NCBI GenBank assembly: GCA_002328745.1
Contig: DCVQ01000027.1
Location: 3,753 to 67,752, forward strand
Origin: Actinobacteria bacterium UBA2184
GTDB lineage: Bacteria; Actinomycetota; Coriobacteriia; Anaerosomatales; Anaerosomataceae
Length of the DNA: 64,000 nucleotides
Reading direction: 5' to 3'
This document shows, in pieces, positions 2,860-63,282 of the stretch. The position numbers were made by a program, and so were the translations under genes. Position 1 is the stretch's first letter. Every line of letters begins with the position of its first letter. The notes beneath the pieces were generated by a model that worked only from the letters and a program-made list of their open reading frames with translations, was not told the DNA's origin and did no database searches.

Positions 2860-2967
2860 GGGACGGGTATAGATAGGTGGTTGCCCGCGAGCGATCTCGC
2901 GGGTCAGCGAGGGTGCCATGAAACGCCGGGCTGAATCGGTCACCTGATGACCCGGCGCGGAGCGAAC

Positions 2968-2997
2968 GGTGAGACCGGCCTCAGGGCCGGTCTCACC
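2968..2997 (+). terminator. perfect 13-bp hairpin GGTGAGACCGGCC-tcag-GGCCGGTCTCACC followed by TCGTTTCGGG
   Basis: Read directly. It lies 109 nt after the 2859 stop, has a partial T-tract, and abuts the SD of the next gene. Confidence 0.45.
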
Positions 2998-3022: not shown

Positions 3023-3403
3023 ATGAAGGCCGCTGCGATCGTGGTGTTCGTGTTCGTGGTGCTGTTGGCGGGCGTCGCCATCGGACAGGAGTACGTGCCG
3101 TGGGAGACCGGGGGCCAGATCTGCCCCGACCGGGTGCTCGCGGAGCGTCTGAGGTGCGGACTCGTGGTGGACGGGTCGTACCTTCCGTACTCGCCCGACG
3201 CCGAGTACGCGTTCGGCTGCATGATCGGCCAGATCTGCCCCGAGCGGGCGCTCGCCAGCCGGCTTGCCGCGGGCCCGGAGTACTTCGCCGAGTACCTGCC
3301 GTACACCGCGTACACCCACTACGCGCCGGATTGCGTGACGGGGCAGGTGTGCCCGGAGCGTGCGCTCGCCGAGCGCGTGGCGTGCGGGATGTGTGGACAC
3401 TAG
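3023..3403 (+). CDS. secreted Cys-rich repeat protein (hypothetical)
   Basis: 126 aa from ATG 3023 (GGGAGGGAG SD). Signal-like MKAAAIVVFVFVVLLAGVAIG. Three copies of GQ[IV]CP[DE]R.LA.R[LV]. 8 Cys in total. Confidence 0.6.
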   Translation: MKAAAIVVFVFVVLLAGVAIGQEYVPWETGGQICPDRVLAERLRCGLVVDGSYLPYSPDAEYAFGCMIGQICPERALASRLAAGPEYFAEYLPYTAYTHYAPDCVTGQVCPERALAERVACGMCGH

Positions 3404-3428: not shown

Positions 3429-4634
3429 TTACGGGATGACGCCCATGCGCTTCCCGACGCGCGTGAACGCGTCCACGGCGAGGTCGAGCTGCTCGTCGGT
3501 GTGCGCCGCCGAGATCTGCACGCGGATGCGCGCCGCTCCCTTCGGCACGACCGGGTAGCTGAAGCCGATGACGTAGATGCCCTCGGCAAGCAGCTCGTCG
3601 GCCATGCGGTGCGCGAGCGCCTCCTGGTAGAGCATCACCGGCACGATCGGGTGCTCGCCGGGACGGATGTCGAAGCCCGCCGCGGTCATCCGGTCGCGGA
3701 ACGAGCGCGTGCTCGTCTCGAGCCGGTCCCGGAGTTCCGTCGTCTCCGACAACAGGTCGATCACCGCGACCGTCGTGGCCGCGACGACCGGCGCGAGCGT
3801 GTTGGAGAACAGGTACGGCCGGCTCTTCTGGCGCAGCCACTCCACGATCTCGGCCCGGCCGCTGAGGCACCCGCCCGACGCACCGCCGAGCGCCTTGCCG
3901 AACGTGGTGGTGATGACGTCCACGCGGTCGGCGACGCCGCAGAGCTCGGGCGTGCCGCGGCCGGTGGGCCCCACGAAGCCGGTGGCGTGCGAGTCGTCCA
4001 CCATCACGAGGGCGCCGTACTCGTCGGCCAGGTCGCAGATCGCCGCGAGGTCGGCGATGTCGCCATCCATCGAGAAGACGCCGTCGGTGGCGATCACCCG
4101 GAAGCGGGCGTCGCGGGCCTCCGCGAGCTTGGCGCGCAGGTCGTCCATGTCCGAGTGCGCGTAGATGAGGCGCTTCGCCTTGGTGAGCCGCACGCCGTCG
4201 ATCACCGAAGCATGGTTGAGCGCGTCGGCCACGATCGCGTCCTCGGGACCGAAGAACGGCTCGAAGAAGCCGCCGTTCGCGTCGAAGCACGACGAGTAGA
4301 GGATCGTGTCCTCCATGCCGAGGAACTCGCTCATGCGCCGCTCGAGTTCTTTGTGCACGCCGAATGTGCCGCAGATGAACCTCACCGAGGACGTGCCGAA
4401 TCCCCAGCGATCGAGCGCCTCGTGCGCCGCCGCGACCACGCGCGGGTCGGCGGCCAGGCCCAGGTAGTTGTTCGCGCAGAAGTTGACCACCTCGCGTGGC
4501 GCCCCGGCGCCCGGCACATCGACGTGGATGTCCGGTCCCTGCGGCGAGACGATGACTCGCTCGGCTTTGTAGAGGCTCGCCTCGTGGAGCGCGTCGATCT
4601 CGGCACGGAGCGTCTCTCTCATGTCGCGAAACAT
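3429..4634 (-). CDS. kbl: 2-amino-3-ketobutyrate CoA ligase (glycine C-acetyltransferase)
   Basis: 401 aa, collinear with E. coli Kbl ([43 protein letters not shown]-Lys, SRPYLFSN). GGAGG SD before ATG 4634. Confidence 0.93.
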
Positions 4635-17316: not shown

Positions 17317-18232
17317 TCCTTCCTGCGCAGCAGCGCCCTCCGTCGGCTGGCGTGCGTGCCTCCAGCGCGCGCGTGCTGCCGCGCTGCACCCGCTTGCCCC
17401 GTTGGCGGTGGTCGCTCCGCTGATCGTGATCTTCTGGATGACCGAATCCTTCGTGCATGTGGTGTTGTTCGACGCGGACTTCTGGGGCCAGGTCTTCCAT
17501 CCGGCGCCGCACGAGTTGTGGATGCGCGGACTGATGACTCTGGTGATGTTGCTGCTTGCGCTTGCGGGAAGTGCTCTCTCGCGGGAGCGCGCGCGGCGCA
17601 TCGAGCAGCTGGAATCGTACCAGCAGCGCCTCCGCGAGCTGACCGCACGTCTGGCGTACGCTGACGGCGACGAGCGTAGGGACCTCGCGAGCAGGCTCCA
17701 CGAAGGGGTGAGCCAGCAGCTTGCGGCGGCCCGCGTCTACCTCGGGAGCGTCGAGGCGACCGATGGCGAAGGACGCGAGGCGCTCGACCGGGCGGGCACG
17801 ATCCTGGAGTCCTCCCTCGCCGAGTGTCGCGAACTGGCCGGTGAGATCGCGCCTCCCGGTCTCGAGCACTACGGTCTGGGGGCCGCCCTCGAAGCGCTTT
17901 CGGCGCGGGTGAGACGCCGGACCGGAGCACGGGTGGAGATCACGGGAGCGGAGTCCGCGTTCCCGCTTGCGGCGGACGTTCAGCGGGTGGCGTTCCAGGT
18001 GATCGCCGAGATCATCGAATCCGCTGTGGCCGACCGGACCGTCCGGGCGCTCGCGCTCGAGTTCCGGCGCGAAGACGGCGCTCTCGCGGTGGGATTCCAC
18101 TGGGACGCACGAGGGCTCACGGACTACTTCTCGGTGCAGGAGCGCATCGGTGCGGTCGGCGGTCGTCTGTGCCTGGAGCCGTCGGGCCCGGACTCGCGCC
18201 TCACGCTGAGGGTGCCGCTCCCGGCCGCCTGA
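17288..18232 (+). CDS. HisKA_3-type sensor kinase homologue with degenerate ATP-binding domain
   Basis: Two N-terminal TM helices. H-box DERRDLASRLHEGVSQQL. The C-terminal domain lacks the N-box Asn and the DxGxG/GxG motifs (reads EIIESAV, FHWDARGL, FSVQERIGAVGG). The start is uncertain; GTG 17288 overlaps the RR gene by 29 nt. Confidence 0.6.
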   Translation: MKASRPLKTDPSCAAAPSVGWRACLQRARAAALHPLAPLAVVAPLIVIFWMTESFVHVVLFDADFWGQVFHPAPHELWMRGLMTLVMLLLALAGSALSRERARRIEQLESYQQRLRELTARLAYADGDERRDLASRLHEGVSQQLAAARVYLGSVEATDGEGREALDRAGTILESSLAECRELAGEIAPPGLEHYGLGAALEALSARVRRRTGARVEITGAESAFPLAADVQRVAFQVIAEIIESAVADRTVRALALEFRREDGALAVGFHWDARGLTDYFSVQERIGAVGGRLCLEPSGPDSRLTLRVPLPAA

Positions 18233-18380
18233 GTCCCGGGCGCGCCTTTCCTTACCACCTCTCGGGGATTCCCTGACGGGGTCGGGGCGTTTTCCGATGC
18301 ACCGCGCCCGGCCGGGCGCCGACCATCGTAGCGGGGAGACTCACTGCCGGCGTGCCGGCACCGCACACGATTGGACCCGG

Positions 18381-20357
18381 ATGTCCGACCGCACAGCCAA
18401 GACGAATGCCTCGCAGCCCGGCGTGTTGCTCGATGCTGCGGCCGAGGCGCTGATCCTTCTCGATACCGGCGACGTCTCGAGCGTGGCCGAGCTCATCGAG
18501 CGCGTGGGCGCGGTCGCGTGTGCGTTCGGCGATACCCTTCCATCCGATCATCCTGCCGAACGCGCACGTGCCGCAGCCGCCGCCCTCGCCGACGGAGACC
18601 TGTCCGCGCTGGCGCCGCTCGAGGCGGCGCTGATCGCGATCAAGGGCGAGATCGACCGGGCGGCTTCCGGCAAGGGCCGGCCCCGCGCCACGAAGCCCCC
18701 TCCGGCGGCCCCGGCCGAACAGGGTGCATCCGCGGCCGATGCCGCGACCGCGGCGACCGAAGCCGGGGCCATGCCGCTCGCCGGCGACGAGGAGCTGCTC
18801 CGTGACTTCGGCGTGCGTGCGGCGGAGCATCTCGACGATGCGGACGAGCGACTCCTCAGGCTCGACGCCGATCCGACCGACCGAGAGTCCATCGACGCGG
18901 TCTTCCGCGCGTTCCATACGATCAAGGGCATGGCCGGCTTCCTCGCGCTCGACGCAATCTCGCACGTTGCCCACGAGGCCGAGGGGATACTCGCCGCCGT
19001 CCGGGCAGAGGGGAACGGTCTCACCGAGCAGGCGGTGCGCGGCCTGCTCATCTCGGTGGACACCATGCGTATCCTCGTCGCCGAGACGAGCGGCGTGGGT
19101 CATACGCGGCCCGACGACGCCCCGGCGACCGGCACGGTCCCCGGCGGCGGGAGCGCTTCCGGGGCGCCCGTCCGCTCGGCAACCGGGGGCACGGTGCGCG
19201 TTGGAGAGGAGCGGCTGGACGCGCTTCTCGACGCGATCGGGGAGCTCGTCATCGGTGAGTCGATGGTCTCGGCGTCGGTTCGCGGCGGTGCGAGCGTGGC
19301 CGAACTCGGGACGCGCCTCGACCAGCTCGACAAGATCACGCGCGAGCTGCAGCAGATGGCCACGTCGCTTCGGATGGTGCCGTTGCGGGCGGTGTTCCGG
19401 CGCATGGCGCGGCTGGTGCACGACGTGTCGGACAAGTCAGGCAAGCGCATCGAGCTGGTCACGACCGGCGAGGACACCGAGCTCGACAAGACCGTGGTCG
19501 ACCGCATCGAGGACCCGCTCGTCCACGCGCTGCGAAACGCCATCGACCACGGCGTCGAGACCGCCGAGGAGCGGCGCGCGGCGGGCAAGCCCGAGGTCGC
19601 CCGCATCGAGCTTCGCGCGTTCCACTCGGCGGGATCCATCCACATCGAAGTCGCCGACGACGGGCGCGGTCTCGACGCCGAGCGCATCCGCGAGCGCGCG
19701 GTGACCGCCGGCGCCATCTCCCCCGACGACGCCCTCGACGGCAGGTCGCTGCTCGACGTGCTGTGCATGCCGGGCTTCTCCACCGCCGAGGTGGTCACCG
19801 ACGTCTCCGGCCGCGGCGTGGGCATGGACGTGGTGCGCCGCACCGTCGAGGAACTGCGTGGCCGCCTCGAGGTGGCCAGCGCTCCGGGCCGGGGCACCAC
19901 GTTCAGCATCCGGCTGCCCGTGACCCTTGCGATCATCGACGGCATGGTGCTGCGCGTCGGCGTCGACCGGTTCATCGTCCCGCTGCTCGCCATCGAGCGC
20001 TCCATCCGGCCGACCGCCGCGCAGATCACCACGATCGCGGGTCGCGGCGAGATGGTCGCCGCCGAGGGCGAGCCGCTGCTCCCGCTGGTGCGCCTGCACC
20101 GGCTCTTCAGCATCCCCGACGCCGAAGAGGACCCGTCCTCGGCCGTTGTGGTGATCGTCAGCGATGGCGGCGTGCGCGCCGGGCTGCTCGCATGCGAGCT
20201 GCTCGGCCAGCAGCAGACCGTCATCAAACCGCTCGGCGACGGGCTTCCGGACATGCCCGGGATCGCCGGCGGTGCCGTCATGCCGGACGGACGCGTGGGG
20301 CTGATCCTCGACGCGGCCGGGATCGTGAGATCCGCCAACGATGGAGGAGGTGAGTGA
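18381..20357 (+). CDS. cheA: chemotaxis histidine kinase CheA
   Basis: Hpt motif FRAFHTIKGMAGF. Dimerisation and HATPase domains (HALRNAIDHG, DDGRGLD, GRGVGMDVV). C-terminal CheW-like domain. About 140 aa of N-terminal extension precede Hpt. The start at ATG 18381 is plausible but not proven. Confidence 0.88.
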   Translation: MSDRTAKTNASQPGVLLDAAAEALILLDTGDVSSVAELIERVGAVACAFGDTLPSDHPAERARAAAAALADGDLSALAPLEAALIAIKGEIDRAASGKGRPRATKPPPAAPAEQGASAADAATAATEAGAMPLAGDEELLRDFGVRAAEHLDDADERLLRLDADPTDRESIDAVFRAFHTIKGMAGFLALDAISHVAHEAEGILAAVRAEGNGLTEQAVRGLLISVDTMRILVAETSGVGHTRPDDAPATGTVPGGGSASGAPVRSATGGTVRVGEERLDALLDAIGELVIGESMVSASVRGGASVAELGTRLDQLDKITRELQQMATSLRMVPLRAVFRRMARLVHDVSDKSGKRIELVTTGEDTELDKTVVDRIEDPLVHALRNAIDHGVETAEERRAAGKPEVARIELRAFHSAGSIHIEVADDGRGLDAERIRERAVTAGAISPDDALDGRSLLDVLCMPGFSTAEVVTDVSGRGVGMDVVRRTVEELRGRLEVASAPGRGTTFSIRLPVTLAIIDGMVLRVGVDRFIVPLLAIERSIRPTAAQITTIAGRGEMVAAEGEPLLPLVRLHRLFSIPDAEEDPSSAVVVIVSDGGVRAGLLACELLGQQQTVIKPLGDGLPDMPGIAGGAVMPDGRVGLILDAAGIVRSANDGGGE

Positions 20358-20890
20358 GCGTGATCCAAACGGAGACGGAGACGGGAGCCCTGGCAGGCAA
20401 GTACCTGACCTTCGCGCTCGCCGATGAGCACTACGGCATCGAGATCCTGCGCGTGCAGGAGATCGTCGGGCTGCTCCCGATCACGCGCGTGCCGCGACTG
20501 CCCGATTTCGTGGCGGGTGTGGTGAATCTGAGAGGCAAGGTCATCCCCGTGGTCGACCTGCGGCAGGCCTTCGGGATGCCCCCGGTCGAGCTCAACGACC
20601 GGACGTGCATCGTCATCGTCCGCACGACGCGGTCTGACGGCCGCACTACCGTCATGGGCGCGCTCGTCGACGAGGTCTCGGAGGTCGCCGACCTGCCGTC
20701 GTCCGCGATCGAGGAGACACCCGAGTTCGGCGTCGGCGTCGATACGTCATTCGTGAAAGCCATCGGACGGCTGGAGGACCGTGTCGTGCTGCTGCTCGAT
20801 GTGGACCTCGTACTGTCCGGTCAGCAACTGGAGATCGTCGAGCGCGCCGCAGCGGCCGCCGAACGAGCGCGTACTGAAGGGGGTTCGTGA
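20354..20890 (+). CDS. cheW: chemotaxis coupling protein CheW
   Basis: 178 aa. [22 protein letters not shown]...[20 protein letters not shown] overlap with the cheA stop, with GGAGGAGG upstream. Confidence 0.9.
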
Positions 20891-22545
20891 TGATCAAGAA
20901 CTGGAGTCTTGGGCTCAAACTGGCAGGCGGGTTCGGCATCGTTGCGCTGCTGCTCGTCATCGTCGGCGGCGCCGCGATGCTCGACATGCGCACGATGAGC
21001 GGCCTCGCGGCCGAGATCACCGAGGATGTCGACATCGCCGACAACATCATGGAGGCGAAGTTCGAGGTGGAGAAGCAGCGGCTGCTGCTGATGGAGGTCA
21101 TCCAGTCGTCGGACGCGGCCGAGATCGAGGCGCTCGCGAGCGATCTCGAGGATTCGAACAAGGTGTTCGACGAGCTGATCGATGCGGCCGTCGCGTCGCT
21201 CGAAGAGGATGCCAGGGGCGATGAGGTGGCCGCCGATGTGCTCCCGCAGGCGCGCGAGGCGGCAGCGGTGCATGACGACGAGCTCGAACCCGTGATCGCG
21301 GAAGCCGTCACGCTCGCGGCGAGCGCCACCACGGAGGAAGCGCGCGACGCTATCGGGGAGCAGCTCGCGGAGCTGGACGAGACGGCCGACGCAGCGGGCG
21401 AGCACATGGTCGGCCTGATGGAGGAAGTCGAGCTCGGCACGGACACGATGGTGGACAACGCGTCCGTCGCGCTCAAGGCGACCACGTCCCGCGCGCTTGC
21501 GCAGTCCATCATCCTGCTCGTGGCCGGCGTTCTTGTCGCCGCAGGTGCCGCGTGGTTCAACACCCGGGCCATCACCTTGCCGATCAACCGCATCATCGCG
21601 GGCCTCACCGCCGGCGCCGAGCAGGTCTCGAGCGCGAGCAATCAGGTGGCCTCCGCAAGCCAGCAGCTGGCCGAAGGCGCGAGCGAGCAGGCCGCCAACC
21701 TCGAGGAGACGTCCTCTTCGCTCGAGGAGATGTCGGGCATGACGCGTCAGAACGCCGACAACTCCCGTCAGGCGGACGCCATCAGCCGCGAGGCGCAGGG
21801 CGCCGCGCAGCGCGGCGTGGACGCGATGAGCCAGATGTCCGCCGCCATCAAGGGCATCAAGGACAGCTCGGACGCCACCGCACGCGTCATCAAGACGATC
21901 GACGAGATCGCCTTCCAGACCAACCTCCTGGCCCTGAATGCGGCCGTTGAGGCCGCTCGCGCCGGAGACGCCGGCAAGGGCTTCGCCGTCGTGGCCGAAG
22001 AGGTCCGCTCGCTCGCGCAGCGCTCGGCAGAGGCCGCCAAGAACACCGCGGTGCTCATCGAAGGCTCGCAGGCAAGCGCCGAGCAGGGCGTCAACGTGAC
22101 CGCCGAGGTCCAGAAGACGCTCGAGCAGATCGTCTCCACCGTCGACCGGGTCACGATGCTCGTGGGCGAGATCGCTGCCGCGAGCCAGGAGCAGGCCCAG
22201 GGCATCGACCAGGTGAACATCGCGGTCGCGCAGATGGACCGGGTGACGCAGGCCAACGCTGCCAACGCCGAGGAGTCCGCCTCCGCGAGCGAGGAACTCT
22301 CGGCCCAGGCTCGCGAGCTCGGCGAGATGGTGACGCTGCTCATCAAGACGGTCCGGGGCGCCAACGCCGCGGTCGGCACGGGGTCCGCGCGGGTTGCCGC
22401 CAGCCCCTCGGCCGGCACGCTCAACCGTGTTCACGCAGCGAGCGCCGGTGCACGCGTGCATGCGGCGGCTGTGGCGCGCAACGCCCGGGCGGTCGACCCC
22501 GAAGAGGTCATCCCGCTCGACGATGAGGACCTGGCCGACTTCTAG
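20887..22545 (+). CDS. methyl-accepting chemotaxis protein (4-helix-bundle sensor)
   Basis: Two TM segments. Hallmark hairpin [43 protein letters not shown]-terminus ...[11 protein letters not shown]. The start overlaps the cheW stop. Confidence 0.9.
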
Positions 22546-22566
22546 GCCGGTGGAAGCGACGAGACA

Positions 22567-23382
22567 GTGCCTGCGATGATGGACATACGGAAGAAGACGT
22601 TCGACCGCCTGGTCGAGATCGTGTACGAGACGAGCGGCATCTCGCTCGGCCCGCGCAAGCAGGCGCTCGTGTGCGCGCGCGTGAGCAAGCGCATGCGGGT
22701 GCTCGGCATCGGCTGCTTCGACGAGTACCTCGCGTATCTCGAGGAACATCGTGGCGAAGTCGTGGGCCTGCTCGACGCGATCTCGACCAACGTGACGAGC
22801 TTCTTCCGCGAGCCGCACCACTTCGACTTCATCGCCGAAGCTGCGGGGCTGTGGTACGAGTCGGGTCAGCGGCGCTTCAGATTCTGGAGCGCCGCGAGCT
22901 CGACCGGCGAGGAGCCGTACTCGCTCGCGATGGTGGTGAAGGAGGCGCTGCCGTTCCCGGATGTGGACCTGCGCATCCTGGCGACCGACATCTCCACCGA
23001 GGCCCTGGCCGTCTGCGAGGACGCCGCCTACGATCTCGGCAGGATGGAACCGGTGCCTGCCGCGCTTCGGGACCGCTGGTTCTCGCCGGTACGCGGCACC
23101 GCGCAGTCGCTGTGGCAGGCGAAGCCCGCGCTGCGCGACGCCGTCGTCTTCCGGCGCATGAACCTCTCGACGCCGCCGTTCCCGATGACGGGGCCGCTCG
23201 ACGCCATCTTCTGTCGCAACGTGATGATCTACTTCGACGACGTGGTGCGGCGCCGCCTCCTCGAGGAGTGCAACCGGCTGCTCAAGCCCGGTGGGTTCCT
23301 CGTCGTGGGACACGCGGAATCGCTTGCGGGCATGATCGCCGACTTCAAGTACGTTCGGCCTTCGATCTATCGCAAGGCATGA
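22567..23382 (+). CDS. cheR: chemotaxis protein methyltransferase CheR
   Basis: 271 aa. TNVTSFFREPHHF, FWSAASSTGEEPYSLAM, IFCRNVMIYF. Confidence 0.9.
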   Translation: MPAMMDIRKKTFDRLVEIVYETSGISLGPRKQALVCARVSKRMRVLGIGCFDEYLAYLEEHRGEVVGLLDAISTNVTSFFREPHHFDFIAEAAGLWYESGQRRFRFWSAASSTGEEPYSLAMVVKEALPFPDVDLRILATDISTEALAVCEDAAYDLGRMEPVPAALRDRWFSPVRGTAQSLWQAKPALRDAVVFRRMNLSTPPFPMTGPLDAIFCRNVMIYFDDVVRRRLLEECNRLLKPGGFLVVGHAESLAGMIADFKYVRPSIYRKA

Positions 23383-23383
23383 A

Positions 23384-23878
23384 GTGGACGTCGTCGTCGG
23401 CATCTCGGAGTACGCGGTGTCGTCCGATCCGGACGACACGCTCATCACGTACTCCCTGGGCAGCTGTGTCGGTCTCGTGCTGCACGATCCCGTGGCGGGC
23501 ATCGGCGGGCTGCTGCACGCGATGATGCCCGTCTCGACCGCCGATCCCGGGAAGGCCGCGATGACGCCGGCGATGTACGTCGACACCGGTGCCGCCCGCA
23601 TGCTGCAGGAGATGTTCGACCGGGGCGCGACGCGGCCGAACCTGTCCGCGTGGGTCGTCGGGGCGGCGAACCAGCTCGATTCCGACAACCTGTTCCGTAT
23701 CGGCGCGCGCAACCACGCCATCGTGCGCAAGGTGCTCTGGAAGAACGGGATCCTCATCGCTGACGAGGAGACCGGTGGGTCGATATCGCGAACGGTCACC
23801 CTCGAGGTGGGGGACGGTCGCGCGTTCGTGAAGTCAAGCGGAGGCGTCCGCGAGCTGCGGCCGCCGAGGACGAGATAG
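23384..23878 (+). CDS. cheD: chemoreceptor glutamine deamidase CheD
   Basis: 164 aa. TYSLGSCVGLVLHD (catalytic Cys), GGLLHAMMP, NIGARN-like FRIGARN. GTG lies 1 nt after the cheR stop. Confidence 0.85.
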   Translation: MDVVVGISEYAVSSDPDDTLITYSLGSCVGLVLHDPVAGIGGLLHAMMPVSTADPGKAAMTPAMYVDTGAARMLQEMFDRGATRPNLSAWVVGAANQLDSDNLFRIGARNHAIVRKVLWKNGILIADEETGGSISRTVTLEVGDGRAFVKSSGGVRELRPPRTR

Positions 23879-23886
23879 GAACGGCG

Positions 23887-25787
<1,901 letters not shown>

Positions 25788-42871: not shown

Positions 42872-43155
42872 GGATGCACGTCCGTGCGGCGGCCGACCGC
42901 TTCGTCCGTACGATCACTCAGACTCTGTGACGGCGCGATTCCTTCGCACGGGTGTCGCGCGCGTGTCCGCTCGGCTCCGGAGAGCGGCCGCTTGTCGGAA
43001 GGGGCGGGCGAGCGCCCCCGGCACCGGGCCCGGCCCGGGCGCGTCGGGGTATGGACTTCCTAGCGTTCGTGATGCCGTGGACGGACCGGCGCGGCCGCAG
43101 AGCATCTGACGTAGTGGACGGACCGCGAGCGGTCCCTGATCGCAAGGAGGCGCGC

Positions 43156-43740
43156 ATGAGCGTCATGGTCGGGCACGAGGCCCCGGACTTCGAGGCCCCC
43201 GGGCTCCAGAACGGCAAGTTCGGCAAGTTCAAGCTGTCGGACTACAAGGGCAAGTGGGTCGTCATCTGCTTCTACCCGGGCGACTTCACCTTCGTTTGAC
43301 CGACCGAGCTCTCGGCGGTCGCCAGGAGGTACCCGGAGCTTCAGGGTCTCGGTGTCGAGGTCCTGTCCTTCAGCGTCGACAGCGTTCACTCCCATAAGGT
43401 GTGGCAGGAGACCGAGCTCTCCAAGATGGTGGACGGCGGCGTGCCGTTCCCGATGCTCTCCGATGCGGGCGGGAAGATCGGCGAGCTCTACGGCGTGTAC
43501 AACGGCGCCGTGGACGTGCGCGGGCGCTTCCTCATCGACCCGAGCGGCGTCATCCAGGCCATGGAGGTGCTCACGCCTCCGGTCGGCCGCAACCCCGATG
43601 AGCTGATCCGCCAGATCAAGGCGTACCAGCACCAGCAGGCAACCGGCGAGGTCATGCCATCCGGCTGGCAGCCGGGCGATCCGACGCTCAAGCCCACCGA
43701 CGATCTCACCGGGCACGTGTGGGAGGTCTGGAAACCGTAG
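43156..43740 (+). CDS. peroxiredoxin (AhpC/Prx1-type) with in-frame TGA at the peroxidatic-Cys codon, read here as selenocysteine
   Basis: ATG 43156 with [21 protein letters not shown](43297-43299)-PTELS. Both halves are in the same frame and conserved (track ORFs 42952..43299 and 43399..43740). 194 codons. Confidence 0.7.
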
Positions 43741-43786: not shown

Positions 43787-43966
43787 ATGGATGTGGTCAA
43801 GGAGGTGCTCGACGCGATGAAGGCGGCGGGCGAGCCGGTGGGCGCGGGCAGGATCGCCGAGATGACGGGCCTGGACCGCAAGGACGTGGACAAGGCGTTC
43901 GACGCGCTCAAGAAGTCCGGCACGATCGAGTCGCCGGTGCGCTGCAAGTGGCAGCCGAAGGTCTAG
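43787..43966 (+). CDS. 59-aa winged-helix-like small protein
   Basis: MDVVKEVLDAMKAAGEPVGAGRIAEMTGLDRKDVDKAFDALKKSGTIESPVRCKWQPK. GGAAGGAG SD 5 nt before ATG 43787. Confidence 0.6.
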   Translation: MDVVKEVLDAMKAAGEPVGAGRIAEMTGLDRKDVDKAFDALKKSGTIESPVRCKWQPKV

Positions 43967-49196: not shown

Positions 49197-52184
49197 CTAC
49201 GGTGCCAATGTGTGACAACTCAGGCAGATGGATGGCTCGGGCACCGGGCTGCTGTCAGCGCTGCAGGCCGGAGACGTTGACGGCTGCTCGGTATCATCGG
49301 ATTGAGTCGCATCGCTCAGGACAGGTGCTGCTGTCCCTGAGATCTCCGTAGAAACCGCAGAACCGGCCTGCGTATCGGGGGGTGTGTTCGCTGCGATCGA
49401 TGCCGACAGGGTAGGCACGGGTCCTGCGGGGATCACGCACGAAGCCGACCGGCTCGCCGCAGTGCTGTGGCAGTTCGCGACGGATCCGTCGGTGCCGCCG
49501 CATGAGACGGTGAGATGTCCGCCAACGGTGTGACAGCCCGCCTCGGTGCATGCATGCGCGTCGACGGTCGTGGGCGTGTCCGGCGTCGGATCGGGGATGC
49601 TGCGGACATCGAGCGCGGAATAGCCTGGGGGCGGCGATGGGTTGTCATGACAACCGCAGGCACCCTCCTGGGGCAGTCCATCGTTGCCGATCTCAACGCC
49701 CGTGTGGACCGTGGCACTGTCGGGGTGGTAGGTGTCCGGAGGATCGGCCGTCGCCATGTGGCAACTGAGCGTCGGGTCGTTGCCGCCGCATCCGATGATC
49801 ATCGACGGTCCGCCGGCGACATGGCAGCCCGGCGTGCCGTAGCAGCCGCCCACGCCGCTATGGAGCGTCGACAGGCGCGTCGTGGTGTGGCAGCCGGCGG
49901 TGACACAGGTGCCGGGCGTCGGCACGTTGTCGGCGCTGTACTCCACGCCTATGTGGTGGTTCGGGTTCTTCGTGTGGTAGCTGATGCTGCGCAGGTGGCA
50001 GCTGAGTGCCGGGTCGGTGCCGCCGCATCCGATGATCATCGACGGTCCGCCGGCGACATGGCAGCCCGGCGTGCCGTAGCAGCCGCCCACGCCGCTATGG
50101 AGCGTCGACAGGCGCGTCGTGGTGTGGCAGCCGTCCTTCACGCAGGAGCCCGGCGTCGGCACGTTGGCCGTGCTGTACTCCACGCCTATGTGGTGGTTCG
50201 GGTTCTTCGTGTGGTAGCTGATGTTGCGCAGGTGACAGCTTAGGGCAGCGTTATCGGCGTTACCGCCGCAGCCCAGTACGCCGGTCGGCCCGCCCTCGAC
50301 GTGGCAGCCCGGGATCGCGCATCCGACCTCGTGGTGCGTTTCGTAGACGTTGACCGTGACATGACAGCCGTCTTTCACGCAGGAGCCCGGCGTCGGCACG
50401 TTGGCCGTGCTGTACTCCACGCCTACGTGCACGGTCGCGAAGTCGTCGTGCTTGTTGGCATCGCTCGCGGTGTGGCACGCCGGCGTCCCCGCGCCACCGC
50501 CGCACGTCATGTAGGTCGGACCTCCCGCAACGTGGCAGCCCGCCGTGTAGCAGACTCCGACCTCTTCGTGCAGATCGCGCACATCGGCGGTGGCGTGGCA
50601 TCCCGGTCTCACGCATCCGGTCTCAGATACCTGTCCGTCGTGGCCGATCTGCGTGGCTATGTGCGCCGCGTCAGCGGTCGCGTGGCGCGAACTCGCGGTG
50701 TGACACGAGGTGCCCGACTGGTCGTCGGTGCCGCCGCACGTCATCGTGCGCGATCCTCTGATGTCACCCGTGTTCGAGTGGCAGCCGCTGATGGTACAGC
50801 CGATCTCGGCGTGCAGGACGCGCACGTCCGCGGTCGTGTGGCAGCCCGGCTTCGCACAGCCCGTGGACGAGACGTGCCCCTCGTGGTCGATCTGAGTGGC
50901 CACGTGTGCACTGCCGATGGCACCGTGGATCGAGTCCCCGTGGCACGTCGCGCATGCCGCGGCGGTGTCGCTCGCTGGCCAGTCGCCCATGACTGCGGCG
51001 ACGGTCGTCTCGTTCTTGTTGTGGCAGCCGAGGCAGGTATCGCCAGCGATGACCGAGTTCCGCCGGGCGTGCTCGATCCCGATGTCCGTCGTGTGGCACG
51101 ATCCGCACGTCACGCTCACACCGCTCGTGCGATCGGTGTAGGTCGCCGATGCCTGCGAGCGGCTCTCCGGCGCATGCACGACATCGTCGTCGGTGTGGCT
51201 GTATTCGTCGTTGAGATAGTCCGGATGGCAGTTGCCCTCGCCGGTGCCGCACGCGGTGACGACCGGGGTCTTTGGCTCGGCCTCGAAGTCGTGGCATGCG
51301 GGCTCGCCCTCGGCCGCCGAACCCGAGCATGTGGCGGGCTTGTCCGGGTGGAGCGCGTGCAGGTCGTTGCCATCGTGGCATCCTGCGCCGGTCGTGCCGC
51401 AGCTTGCGGTGCCGCTTGCCTCGACCGAGCCGGAGATCACGTCGGAGGCGTGCATCGGCGCGCGCACCGTCTCTTGGTGGCAGTCCTCGCAGCGGTGGTC
51501 CTCCCAGTCGGAGAGGACCTGGTCGAGCGCCCCCGACTGCTCGTCGTTGTGGCACTCGACGCACCCGATCTCGGTGCCGTAGTCGCCTCCGTCGACCTCG
51601 TTCACCACGGAGTGCGCGGTCTTGAGATCGCGCGAGTGGCAATCGGCGCAGGTCGCCTTTGCTTCGCCGTCGGCCGCCGTCCTCACTACCTGTTCGAAGT
51701 CCGTGCCGAGGGCGGTGTGCAGCGATTCGCGGTAGTGTCCCTTGGGCCACGCGTCGGCGAGCGTCACGCAATCGGAGACGCCCTCCATACTGCCGTCGTG
51801 GCACCCGGTGCACTCGTGCTGATTCGGGGCGTGGCAGGGGATGCATCCGACGCCCGTGTAGTCGTGGCACACAGTGCACGCGGTGTCGGGATGGTACTTG
51901 TTGAAGTCGCTCAGGCCCTCATCGAACCCGTGGCAGCCGTCGCCCGAGTTCGTGCAGCCGCTCTCGCGACGCGCGCTGTAGTCGCTGGCGGAGGTGAAGG
52001 TGTGGACGGTCTCGGTGGGAGGGTTCCAGCCTGCGGCAAACGCAAGACCGCCGATCAGGACCACAGCGATCCCGATCTTGCCCTTGCGGGCCCTGATCCA
52101 CTGTGCGAGTCCCTCGCGAGCCGGCTGCGGCGTTCCGGCGCCGTAGGACGCCGTTCCGCCGCTGGGATGCTTCGTGCCCCTCAT
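49197..52184 (-). CDS. N-terminally anchored giant multihaem c-type cytochrome (10 CxxCH + 21 C-x(4-10)-CH motifs)
   Basis: 995 aa. TM anchor KIGIAVVLIGGLAFAAGW. Canonical motifs: CTVCH, CIPCH, CTGCH, CADCH, CVECH, CEDCH, CGSCH, CLGCH, CATCH, CLSCH. The C-terminal half consists of tandem modules. GGGGGG SD before ATG 52184. Confidence 0.85.
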   Translation of the reverse strand: MRGTKHPSGGTASYGAGTPQPAREGLAQWIRARKGKIGIAVVLIGGLAFAAGWNPPTETVHTFTSASDYSARRESGCTNSGDGCHGFDEGLSDFNKYHPDTACTVCHDYTGVGCIPCHAPNQHECTGCHDGSMEGVSDCVTLADAWPKGHYRESLHTALGTDFEQVVRTAADGEAKATCADCHSRDLKTAHSVVNEVDGGDYGTEIGCVECHNDEQSGALDQVLSDWEDHRCEDCHQETVRAPMHASDVISGSVEASGTASCGTTGAGCHDGNDLHALHPDKPATCSGSAAEGEPACHDFEAEPKTPVVTACGTGEGNCHPDYLNDEYSHTDDDVVHAPESRSQASATYTDRTSGVSVTCGSCHTTDIGIEHARRNSVIAGDTCLGCHNKNETTVAAVMGDWPASDTAAACATCHGDSIHGAIGSAHVATQIDHEGHVSSTGCAKPGCHTTADVRVLHAEIGCTISGCHSNTGDIRGSRTMTCGGTDDQSGTSCHTASSRHATADAAHIATQIGHDGQVSETGCVRPGCHATADVRDLHEEVGVCYTAGCHVAGGPTYMTCGGGAGTPACHTASDANKHDDFATVHVGVEYSTANVPTPGSCVKDGCHVTVNVYETHHEVGCAIPGCHVEGGPTGVLGCGGNADNAALSCHLRNISYHTKNPNHHIGVEYSTANVPTPGSCVKDGCHTTTRLSTLHSGVGGCYGTPGCHVAGGPSMIIGCGGTDPALSCHLRSISYHTKNPNHHIGVEYSADNVPTPGTCVTAGCHTTTRLSTLHSGVGGCYGTPGCHVAGGPSMIIGCGGNDPTLSCHMATADPPDTYHPDSATVHTGVEIGNDGLPQEGACGCHDNPSPPPGYSALDVRSIPDPTPDTPTTVDAHACTEAGCHTVGGHLTVSCGGTDGSVANCHSTAASRSASCVIPAGPVPTLSASIAANTPPDTQAGSAVSTEISGTAAPVLSDATQSDDTEQPSTSPACSADSSPVPEPSICLSCHTLAP
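49749..50222 (-). repeat. two tandem 237-nt (79-aa) coding repeat units inside the cytochrome gene
   Basis: 49782-49895 is identical to 50019-50132 (114 nt, compared by eye). The rest of the unit is near-identical. More diverged copies continue to about 50906. Confidence 0.85.
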
Positions 52185-52211
52185 GATGGCCCCCCGGAAG
52201 TTCGGCGACGC

Positions 52212-62346: not shown

Positions 62347-63282
62347 TCATCGCCGCTTCAGGTCGCGCGAGACGGCCATCGCCGCGCGAGCACCCTCGCC
62401 CGCTGCGATGATGATCTGCTTGCCGAGCCCGTCGGTCACGTCACCGGCGGCGTAGATGCCGGGCGCCGACGTGGCGCAACGCTTGTCGGTGACGATCTCG
62501 CCCTTCTCGTTGGTCTCCACGAGACCGCCGGTGTACTCGGAGACGGGGATGGAGCCGGTCTCGATGAACACGCCGGTGACCGACAACACCTCTTCGGCGC
62601 CCGTCTTCACGTCTTTGACGGCAAGGCCGGTCACGCGCTCGGCGCCCTCGATCGCGGTGACCTTGAGTCCCTCGCGTACGGTGATCGCGCCGGAAGCGGC
62701 GACCTTCTCGAGCACGGCGCCGTGCGCCTTGAGCGGCGTCTGCGTGACGATCGTGACGGTCGCGTCGAGATCGGCGAGTTCGAGGGCGGCGTCGCAGGCC
62801 GACTCGGTGGAGCCCACCACCGCGACGGGCTGGCCGCGAAAGAACGAGCCGTCGCACGTGGCGCAGTACGAGACGCCCCGGCCGATCATCTCGGTCTCGC
62901 CGGGAACGGCGAGGCGGTTGGGCGCGCGGCCCGTAGCGATGATCACGGCGCGCGTGGGCAAGTGCGTCCCCTCGCGCGTGTAGACGTCGAAGCCGTCTTC
63001 GGCGGGCACGAGGGCGTTCACCAGCTGTCCCTCGAAGCACTTCACGTCGAACTGCGAGACGTGGTCGCGGAACGCCTGCACGAGATCCGCGCCGGTGACG
63101 AGGCGCCAGCCGAGGTAGTTCTCGACCTCGCTCGCCCAGGCGGCCTGGCCACCGACCTCGCCGCCGACGATGGCGGTGGCGAGCCCCTGTCGCGCGGCGT
63201 ACATGCCTGCGGTGAGTCCCGCGGGGCCGGCGCCGATCACGACGACGTCGTAGCGTTCGGGTGAGTGCGTCTCGTCTGCCAT
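62347..63282 (-). CDS. thioredoxin-reductase-like flavoprotein (CATC disulfide) lacking NADPH-binding motifs
   Basis: 311 aa. FAD motif VVVIGAGPAG. Redox centre YCATCDG. It has GSTESA where TrxB has GGGNTA, and VTQTPLKA where TrxB has HRRDxxRA. GAGGAGG SD. Confidence 0.8.
   Translation of the reverse strand: MADETHSPERYDVVVIGAGPAGLTAGMYAARQGLATAIVGGEVGGQAAWASEVENYLGWRLVTGADLVQAFRDHVSQFDVKCFEGQLVNALVPAEDGFDVYTREGTHLPTRAVIIATGRAPNRLAVPGETEMIGRGVSYCATCDGSFFRGQPVAVVGSTESACDAALELADLDATVTIVTQTPLKAHGAVLEKVAASGAITVREGLKVTAIEGAERVTGLAVKDVKTGAEEVLSVTGVFIETGSIPVSEYTGGLVETNEKGEIVTDKRCATSAPGIYAAGDVTDGLGKQIIIAAGEGARAAMAVSRDLKRR

Follow-up and report, generated by a model that had tools for sequence, protein, structure and literature searches.

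Results and discussion

How should a TGA be read when it stands exactly at the codon for the catalytic cysteine of a peroxiredoxin, i.e., as the end of a gene, as the trace of its decay, or as a codon for selenocysteine (Sec)? The question is raised by a locus in the window (the whole stretch of DNA analyzed here, 64 kb in length and with a G+C content of 68.8%), where positions 43156-43740 of the forward strand (+), read directly, make up a single frame of 195 codons including its TAG stop, with TGA 43297-43299 as the sole internal stop. The frame opens with ATG 43156-43158, preceded at a distance of 5 nt by the Shine-Dalgarno sequence AAGGAGG (43144-43150 (+)), and closes with TAG 43738-43740; similar purine-rich sequences occupy the equivalent place in four orthologous loci (L001, L011, L263, and L264). 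An earlier note on this DNA had given the Shine-Dalgarno sequence, the start, the two stops, and a single interruption, all of which match the sequence, and its claim that the two open reading frames 42952-43299 and 43399-43740 share one frame held when checked (it is the frame of the gene discussed here). Read through the TGA, the product is 194 residues long, with Sec at codon 48, and its active-site segment is FYPGDFTFV[TGA]PTE. We consider that 43156-43740 is very probably a functional prxU gene, encoding an AhpC/Prx1-type, thioredoxin-fold peroxiredoxin with a peroxidatic selenocysteine.

The locus stood out in a coarse base-composition screen of the window for TGA codons with coding-type flanks on both sides, which gave five sites. 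Only at the prxU TGA was a full coding-type profile downstream of the codon joined by a product with homology support; the other four were discarded, because their first-position G+C was low, as in antisense frames, or because they marked a genuine gene end. As indirect evidence of Sec decoding, a second selenoprotein gene was sought in the window, in the flanks of its contig, and in the flanks of related contigs, and none was found.

A peroxiredoxin of the PrxU family

Scored with Cys in place of Sec, the joined product reaches 335.4 bits with the curated equivalog model NCBIfam NF040737 (peroxi_PrxU), whose cutoff is 270 (E 1.9e-100, over profile positions 35-230 of 233), while it remains below the cutoff of the AhpC equivalog TIGR03137 (167 bits vs 272). 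The Pfam domains AhpC-TSA (PF00578, E 5e-38) and 1-cysPrx_C span both halves of the product. The nearest solved structures are typical 2-Cys peroxiredoxins of the AhpC/Prx1 type, i.e., Ancylostoma AcePrx-1 (PDB 4fh8) and human Prx2 (PDB 1qmv), aligned over residues 4-183 with E ~1e-46. This alignment places the TGA (43297-43299 (+)) on the peroxidatic Cys, as the peroxidatic residue of a P41-x3-T45-x2-U48 motif, Arg122 on the catalytic Arg, and Met167 (43654-43656 (+)) on the resolving Cys; Cys-form homologues (among them P0014, P0029, and P0107, 62-68% identical to the window protein) likewise align their peroxidatic Cys with codon 48. The placement of the TGA at the catalytic codon, first proposed from the letters alone, is thereby borne out by both structures and homologues. 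The window protein thus shares FYPxDFTFV-C/U-PTE and the catalytic Arg with typical 2-Cys peroxiredoxins, but its peroxidatic residue is predicted to be Sec instead of Cys, and the resolving Cys has given way to Met167 (GEVMPSGW where these enzymes have GEVCPAGW), just as the earlier note had read it. The C-terminal resolving Cys is missing from the whole subfamily and not only from the window protein.

Prx is an experimentally verified selenoprotein family, and PrxU from Eubacterium (Peptoclostridium) acidaminophilum is the member on which it was founded (Sohling et al. 2001, cited by PMC13188914). Twelve members were listed in 2006 (PMC1794560), and by 2016 the count had reached 91 genes in 78 organisms; Prx is among the commonest bacterial selenoprotein families (PMC5029168). 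With its product above the NF040737 cutoff, the window gene is a regular member of this known family, and the E. acidaminophilum enzyme proves to be an apt precedent for it. Common to the window protein and PrxU (NF040737, the "Prx, TxxU" family) are the AhpC-TSA plus 1-cysPrx_C fold, the PxxxTxxU site with a peroxidatic UGA, the lack of a C-terminal resolving Cys, and a SECIS inside the coding sequence after the UGA. What sets it apart from many relatives is the lack of an N-terminal extension of ~35 residues (missing from its five orthologues too), the lack of an upstream Fur-family gene, and its host, an Anaerosomatales-like member of the Coriobacteriia for which we found no Sec report, whereas the family matches listed come mostly from Chloroflexota, delta-proteobacterial lineages (Desulfobacterota), and Bacillota.

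The extension itself is carried by many PrxU-family proteins in both Sec and Cys forms (e.g., P0002, P0009, P0014, P0029, and P0107). It corresponds to positions 1-34 of the NF040737 profile and contains the motif (D)GC[VI]xPA[KR]GP[IV], and some of the extended members also have a hydrophobic N-terminal leader that resembles a signal peptide. From its conserved Cys motif, the extension might be a resolving-Cys arm.

Conservation of the TGA codon

In a search of 5.8 billion proteins, every match with >90% identity was a C-terminal fragment of 125-134 residues, which indicates that the gene is interrupted at one and the same point in these orthologues. At the DNA level (L001-L011, L263, and L264), a 47-residue AhpC-TSA fragment runs up to a TGA, and the remainder of the gene continues beyond it without a change of frame. 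TGA occupies codon 48 in each of the six orthologues compared (the window, L001, L010, L011, L263, and L264), which are separated by dS values of 0.4-2.1 and show dN/dS ratios of 0.04-0.11 downstream of the TGA and 0.07-0.32 upstream, without frameshifts or additional stops. Both halves of the gene had previously been described as intact and conserved, and purifying selection on each side of the TGA agrees with this description.

The same arrangement extends far beyond the close relatives. An exact-pattern scan of a collection with one genome per species recovered FTFV-TGA-PTE in at least 119 genomes, including Chloroflexota, delta-proteobacterial lineages (Desulfobacterota), Bacillota, Acidobacteriota, Zixibacteria, and Ignavibacteria; among the matches listed, one was from an Actinomycetota genome and the closest was 74% identical. 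In all listed loci but four the frame stays open for ~139-176 codons past the TGA, the four exceptions being loci that reach the end of the retrieved stretch. Among the best 120 protein matches, the active site reads FTFV-W-PTE in 67 and has Cys in 23. The tryptophan forms are most simply explained by gene calling on short contigs with code 4, under which TGA becomes Trp. In two close homologues (P0081 and P0083), the Sec/Cys position is taken by Arg (FTFVRPTE) or Ser (FTFVSATE), residues that may mark an inactive or repurposed protein or may derive from TGA by a single base change (CGA/AGA).

A covarying hairpin downstream of the TGA

Shortly after the UGA, the window RNA can form a small hairpin at 43309-43328 (+), CUCU-C-GGC[GGUC]GCC-A-GGAG, for which we propose the role of a bacterial SECIS. 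Counting the U of UGA as position 1, it consists of a lower stem (13-16/29-32), a C17xA28 mismatch, and an upper stem (18-20/25-27) that carries the apical loop GGUC (43317-43320 (+)), whose G22 and U23 are, from the loop pattern of the family, the presumed SelB contact. Alone, this segment folds as ((((.(((....))).)))) at -7.9 kcal/mol, and the spacing between UGA and loop is 17 nt (positions 4-20). The bacterial SECIS consensus (the Zhang and Gladyshev model, as given in PMC13188914) has a small loop with a G followed by G/U near its start, pairable flanking bases, a distance of 16-37 nt from UGA to loop, and an upper stem of 4-16 bp. The window hairpin agrees with it in loop, G position, and 17-nt spacing; its upper stem, with three contiguous pairs, a C-A mismatch, and four further pairs, falls within 4-16 bp only if the mismatch is tolerated.

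In the SECIS of E. coli fdhF, the loop is likewise GGUC, with G23/U24, and U17 is bulged. Like that element and the bSECISearch model, the window hairpin is small, lies directly 3' of the UGA within the open reading frame, and has a GGUC tetraloop; its stem, however, is shorter and broken by the C-A mismatch. Its G-U presumably sits one nucleotide nearer to the UGA than the G-U of fdhF.

Taken by itself, the stem in the window is no proof of structure, since its codons are also those preferred at a genomic G+C content of 69%. The hairpin (three G-C pairs, a C-A mismatch, and four pairs) is also weaker than the family norm, and when the 74 nt after the UGA are folded with RNAfold, the minimum free energy structure favors a competing hairpin that contains the UGA, with an unremarkable energy (z = -0.52). 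This competing structure is the hairpin drawn in the earlier note (positions 2-24): it exists and is the optimum of RNAfold, but it overlaps the SECIS at 43309-43328, shows no covariation, and is not the conserved element. We rejected it as a functional element, given that its score of 0.084 compares with 0.077 in shuffled alignments (85 of 500 shuffles reach it) and that it includes the UGA itself. A search of the region against Rfam gave no match, whether the gathering threshold was applied or E values up to 10 were admitted, a result that says nothing about the hairpin since Rfam evidently has no model for the prxU SECIS.

The evidence that the earlier note was right to look for a SECIS-like structure after the UGA comes from the family. 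In 122 distinct TGA-containing sequences, the hairpin takes the form of a stem at 15-20/25-30 and a loop at 21-24 that reads GGUC in 55 and AGUU in 52, its GU being near-invariant and its flanking bases complementary. The stem overlies the codons for L-x-A-V-A-x, and the pairs 18:27 and 15:30 each join two synonymous third positions. We compared forms that encode the same peptide, (U/C)-PTE-[LIM]-x-AVA, with 102 Sec forms set against a small control of 8 Cys forms (a metagenome scan yielded mostly other Prx subfamilies, with five usable sequences). Pair 18:27 is paired in 102/102 Sec forms (G-C in 67, A-U in 27, G-U in 5, C-G in 2, and U-A in 1) but in 2/8 Cys forms, and pair 21:24 is Watson-Crick in 100/102 against 1/8. 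The Val codon is GTC or GTT in all but one of the 102 Sec forms, while the 8 Cys forms use GTG, GTC, GTA, and GTT. All six stem pairs are formed in 66 of the 102 Sec forms, and five pairs in 32 more.

Given 36 diverse sequences, RNAalifold picked the columns 15-18/27-30 unprompted, with compensatory changes in all four pairs. Across the six-pair helix, 91.7% of cells are paired (shuffled mean 72.1%), 43 cells are changed on both sides (shuffled mean 12.2), and the covariation score is 0.537 (shuffled mean 0.149), values that none of 500 shuffles reach in any of the three measures; controls in which the helix was slid along the alignment scored at most 0.155.

Some members of the family depart from this pattern. 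A PrxU subclade with the peptide U-PTE-ISHIAVGY (L075, L126, L127, L090, and L027) is without the GGC-GGUC-GCC hairpin and has CAUAGCC-GUG-GGCUAUG ~7 nt further downstream (~21-37 after the UGA), and L051 has GAUAGCG-GUU-CGCUAUC in its place, both of these hairpins having a G-U in the loop. Judging from these sequences, the SECIS appears to have been re-invented or shifted within the PrxU family.

Selenocysteine machinery and the genetic code

We found neither selA, selB, and selD nor a tRNA-Sec gene in the 64-kb window, in the 10 kb past its 3' end, or in the 4 kb before its 5' end (~78 kb of contig in total), and the window has no tRNA gene of any kind. The flanks were reached through proteins near both ends of the window, which match exactly a 136,750-bp contig (ENA ERZ27315072 k141_6433) on which the window covers positions ~3869-67868; window proteins also recur on contigs from several other samples, and the organism is represented in JGI 3300002821, SRR5323318, and SRR1313243 as well. 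As sel genes take up only a few kb of a genome, their absence from ~78 kb is uninformative. Elsewhere in the family, an Anaerolineaceae MAG (L078) has a tRNA-SeC gene with anticodon TCA at 4460-4555 (-), a few hundred bases from its prxU TGA. In a provisional, composition-based list of the window's open reading frames, TGA ends 26 of 47 and is the commonest true stop, and UGA is therefore not reassigned in the source organism. In the literature, we found no report that links OPB41 or Anaerosomatales to selenocysteine.

Alternative explanations

The UGA could be read through without any selenium, either because it is reassigned (to Trp or Gly) or because a near-cognate tRNA (Trp or Cys) decodes it, with the hairpin merely promoting the read-through. 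The full-length "W" proteins that alternative-code gene calls gave for many homologues would fit such a scheme, as would the absence of Sec genes from the ~78 kb of contig read. However, a global reassignment is at odds with the 26 of 47 window reading frames that end in TGA, a peroxidatic Trp would kill an enzyme that is nonetheless under strong purifying selection, the hairpin has the features of a SelB target (its small loop, at a distance of 17 nt from the UGA, contains a G-U), and the family includes a member verified to contain selenium (PMC13188914); we regard this explanation as improbable. Still less credible, in our opinion, is the arrangement that follows the annotation literally, namely a 47-residue peptide and, made separately from an internal GTG or ATG, a C-terminal protein. 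It matches the gene calls of public pipelines, yet these internal starts vary among orthologues (L001 has GTG at VEVL, others have TTG or GTG, and the window has no start there), neither piece would have a complete thioredoxin fold or active site, and protein-level conservation extends over the codons that lie between the TGA and the called starts.

The same split gene calls (47 + 104 or 113 residues in every public annotation of the locus) would also be produced by a pseudogene, i.e., a Cys-peroxiredoxin that suffered a TGY-to-TGA nonsense mutation and is now decaying. The TGA is one base away from TGC or TGT, and no Sec machinery was seen in the ~78 kb read. Against this stand the retention of the TGA in six orthologues that are far from being near-identical strains (dS 0.4-2.1), with no other lesions and with dN/dS of 0.04-0.32, the at least 119 other genomes with the same TGA and an intact downstream frame in all but the four end-cut loci, and a hairpin that covaries in the TGA forms and is largely absent from the eight Cys forms. 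A decaying gene is thus a very improbable reading of the locus. The difference of a single base could also stem from an error of sequencing or assembly, the true codon being TGC or TGT. This, the least probable of the alternatives, is excluded in practice, since the N-terminal fragment of 47 residues recurs unchanged on five contigs from NCBI, JGI, Logan, and ENA assemblies; the TGA is also found in divergent orthologues from other samples. The NF040737 match, the conserved TGA, the purifying selection, the covarying hairpin, and the use of TGA as an ordinary stop elsewhere in the window together favor what the earlier note had suggested, namely that the locus encodes a PrxU-type peroxiredoxin with Sec and is no decayed gene.

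Proposed mechanism and the role of Cys38

For such a selenoprotein, we envisage that translation would start at ATG 43156 and that, once the ribosome arrives at UGA 43297-43299, the downstream hairpin (43309-43328) would present its GGUC loop to SelB. SelB would bring Sec-tRNASec, Sec would be inserted, and translation would go on to TAG 43740 to yield the 194-residue protein. In the P-x3-T-x2-U site, Sec48 would reduce peroxides together with Arg122. Because Met167 replaces the resolving Cys, a thiol reductant such as thioredoxin would have to restore the oxidized selenium directly, or else Cys38 would mediate its recycling. We infer from the family that selenium is incorporated, that the protein acts as a peroxidase, and what its reductant is, and we infer the binding of SelB as well.

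Ten residues ahead of Sec48 stands Cys38 (43267-43269 (+)), the protein's one cysteine, which had been overlooked when the TGA-encoded residue was called the sole redox residue. It is conserved across the clade at this distance from U/C, in Sec and Cys forms alike, whereas other peroxiredoxins have Phe, Tyr, Leu, Met, or Ile at this position. From its conservation, one could speculate that in PrxU proteins without the extension Cys38 acts as the resolving residue, through an intramolecular selenenyl-sulfide with Sec48, although we hold this to be rather unlikely. To our knowledge, a resolving residue at this position has not been described for any class of peroxiredoxin. If Cys38 did play this role, the N-terminal Cys motif of the longer members (GCxxPxxGP) would be an alternative resolving arm.

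Genomic neighborhood

Downstream of prxU lies a gene for a 59-residue, helix-turn-helix-like protein (43787-43966 (+), with weak matches of the HTH type), which follows prxU in most of the loci that extend past it (L001-L004, L006-L008, L010, L011, and L264) and is named "biotin operon repressor" in one source. A Fur-family (PerR-like) gene sits directly upstream of prxU in the closest relatives, namely L001 (9228-9698), L011 (9285-9806), and L263 (2220-2696). No Fur homologue was found in the 64-kb window, where a 284-nt gap (42872-43155) precedes prxU instead.

At a distance of 19 kb from prxU, the window encodes a 311-residue flavoprotein (62347-63282 (-)) that is similar to TrxB or to the C-terminal half of AhpF, carries CATC as its redox motif, and scores below the curated cutoffs of both families. 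From its likeness to these reductases, it is a possible, though unlinked, reductase partner of PrxU. Its nearest named relatives are from Coriobacteriia MAGs (79%) and Anaerosoma tenue (70%), followed by "Actinobacteria bacterium 66_15" (70%) and an Anaerosomatales MAG (66%). The G+C content of cultured Anaerosomatales (66.6-67.7%; PMC9686372) is near the 68.8% of the window.

Several other features of the window were recorded along the way. A c-di-GMP-II riboswitch at 2902-2989 (+), which scores 55.1 bits with Rfam RF03169 (gathering score 40), stands directly upstream of a small open reading frame (3023-3403 (+)) with a hydrophobic N-terminal stretch and three copies of the repeat GQ(I/V)CP(D/E)R..LA.RL. 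A multihaem cytochrome of ~1000 residues with many CxxCH motifs (49197-52211 (-)) adjoins a HAMP/MCP-like gene, and a chemotaxis cluster (18210-24735 (+)) contains CheA, CheW, MCP, CheR, CheD, and CheY-like genes, as read from their translations. Chemotaxis clusters are uncommon in described Coriobacteriia.

Implications

Public gene callers have missed what is, judged by its sequence and that of its relatives, a genuine selenoprotein gene, the prxU described here. In their calls, for this locus and for its orthologues, what would be a working antioxidant enzyme is cut into two meaningless fragments, and consequently both the peroxide defense and the selenium use of the genome are under-reported. 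The window gene leaves knowledge of selenoproteins as such unchanged, and its main value is for annotation. The comparison across the family, on the other hand, offers an unusually clean case of a SECIS kept by covariation at synonymous codon positions, and a family model of sequence plus structure could serve to find prxU genes. For the organism, the gene would imply that an Anaerosomatales-like (OPB41-type) lineage of subsurface or hydrocarbon-associated Coriobacteriia decodes selenocysteine.
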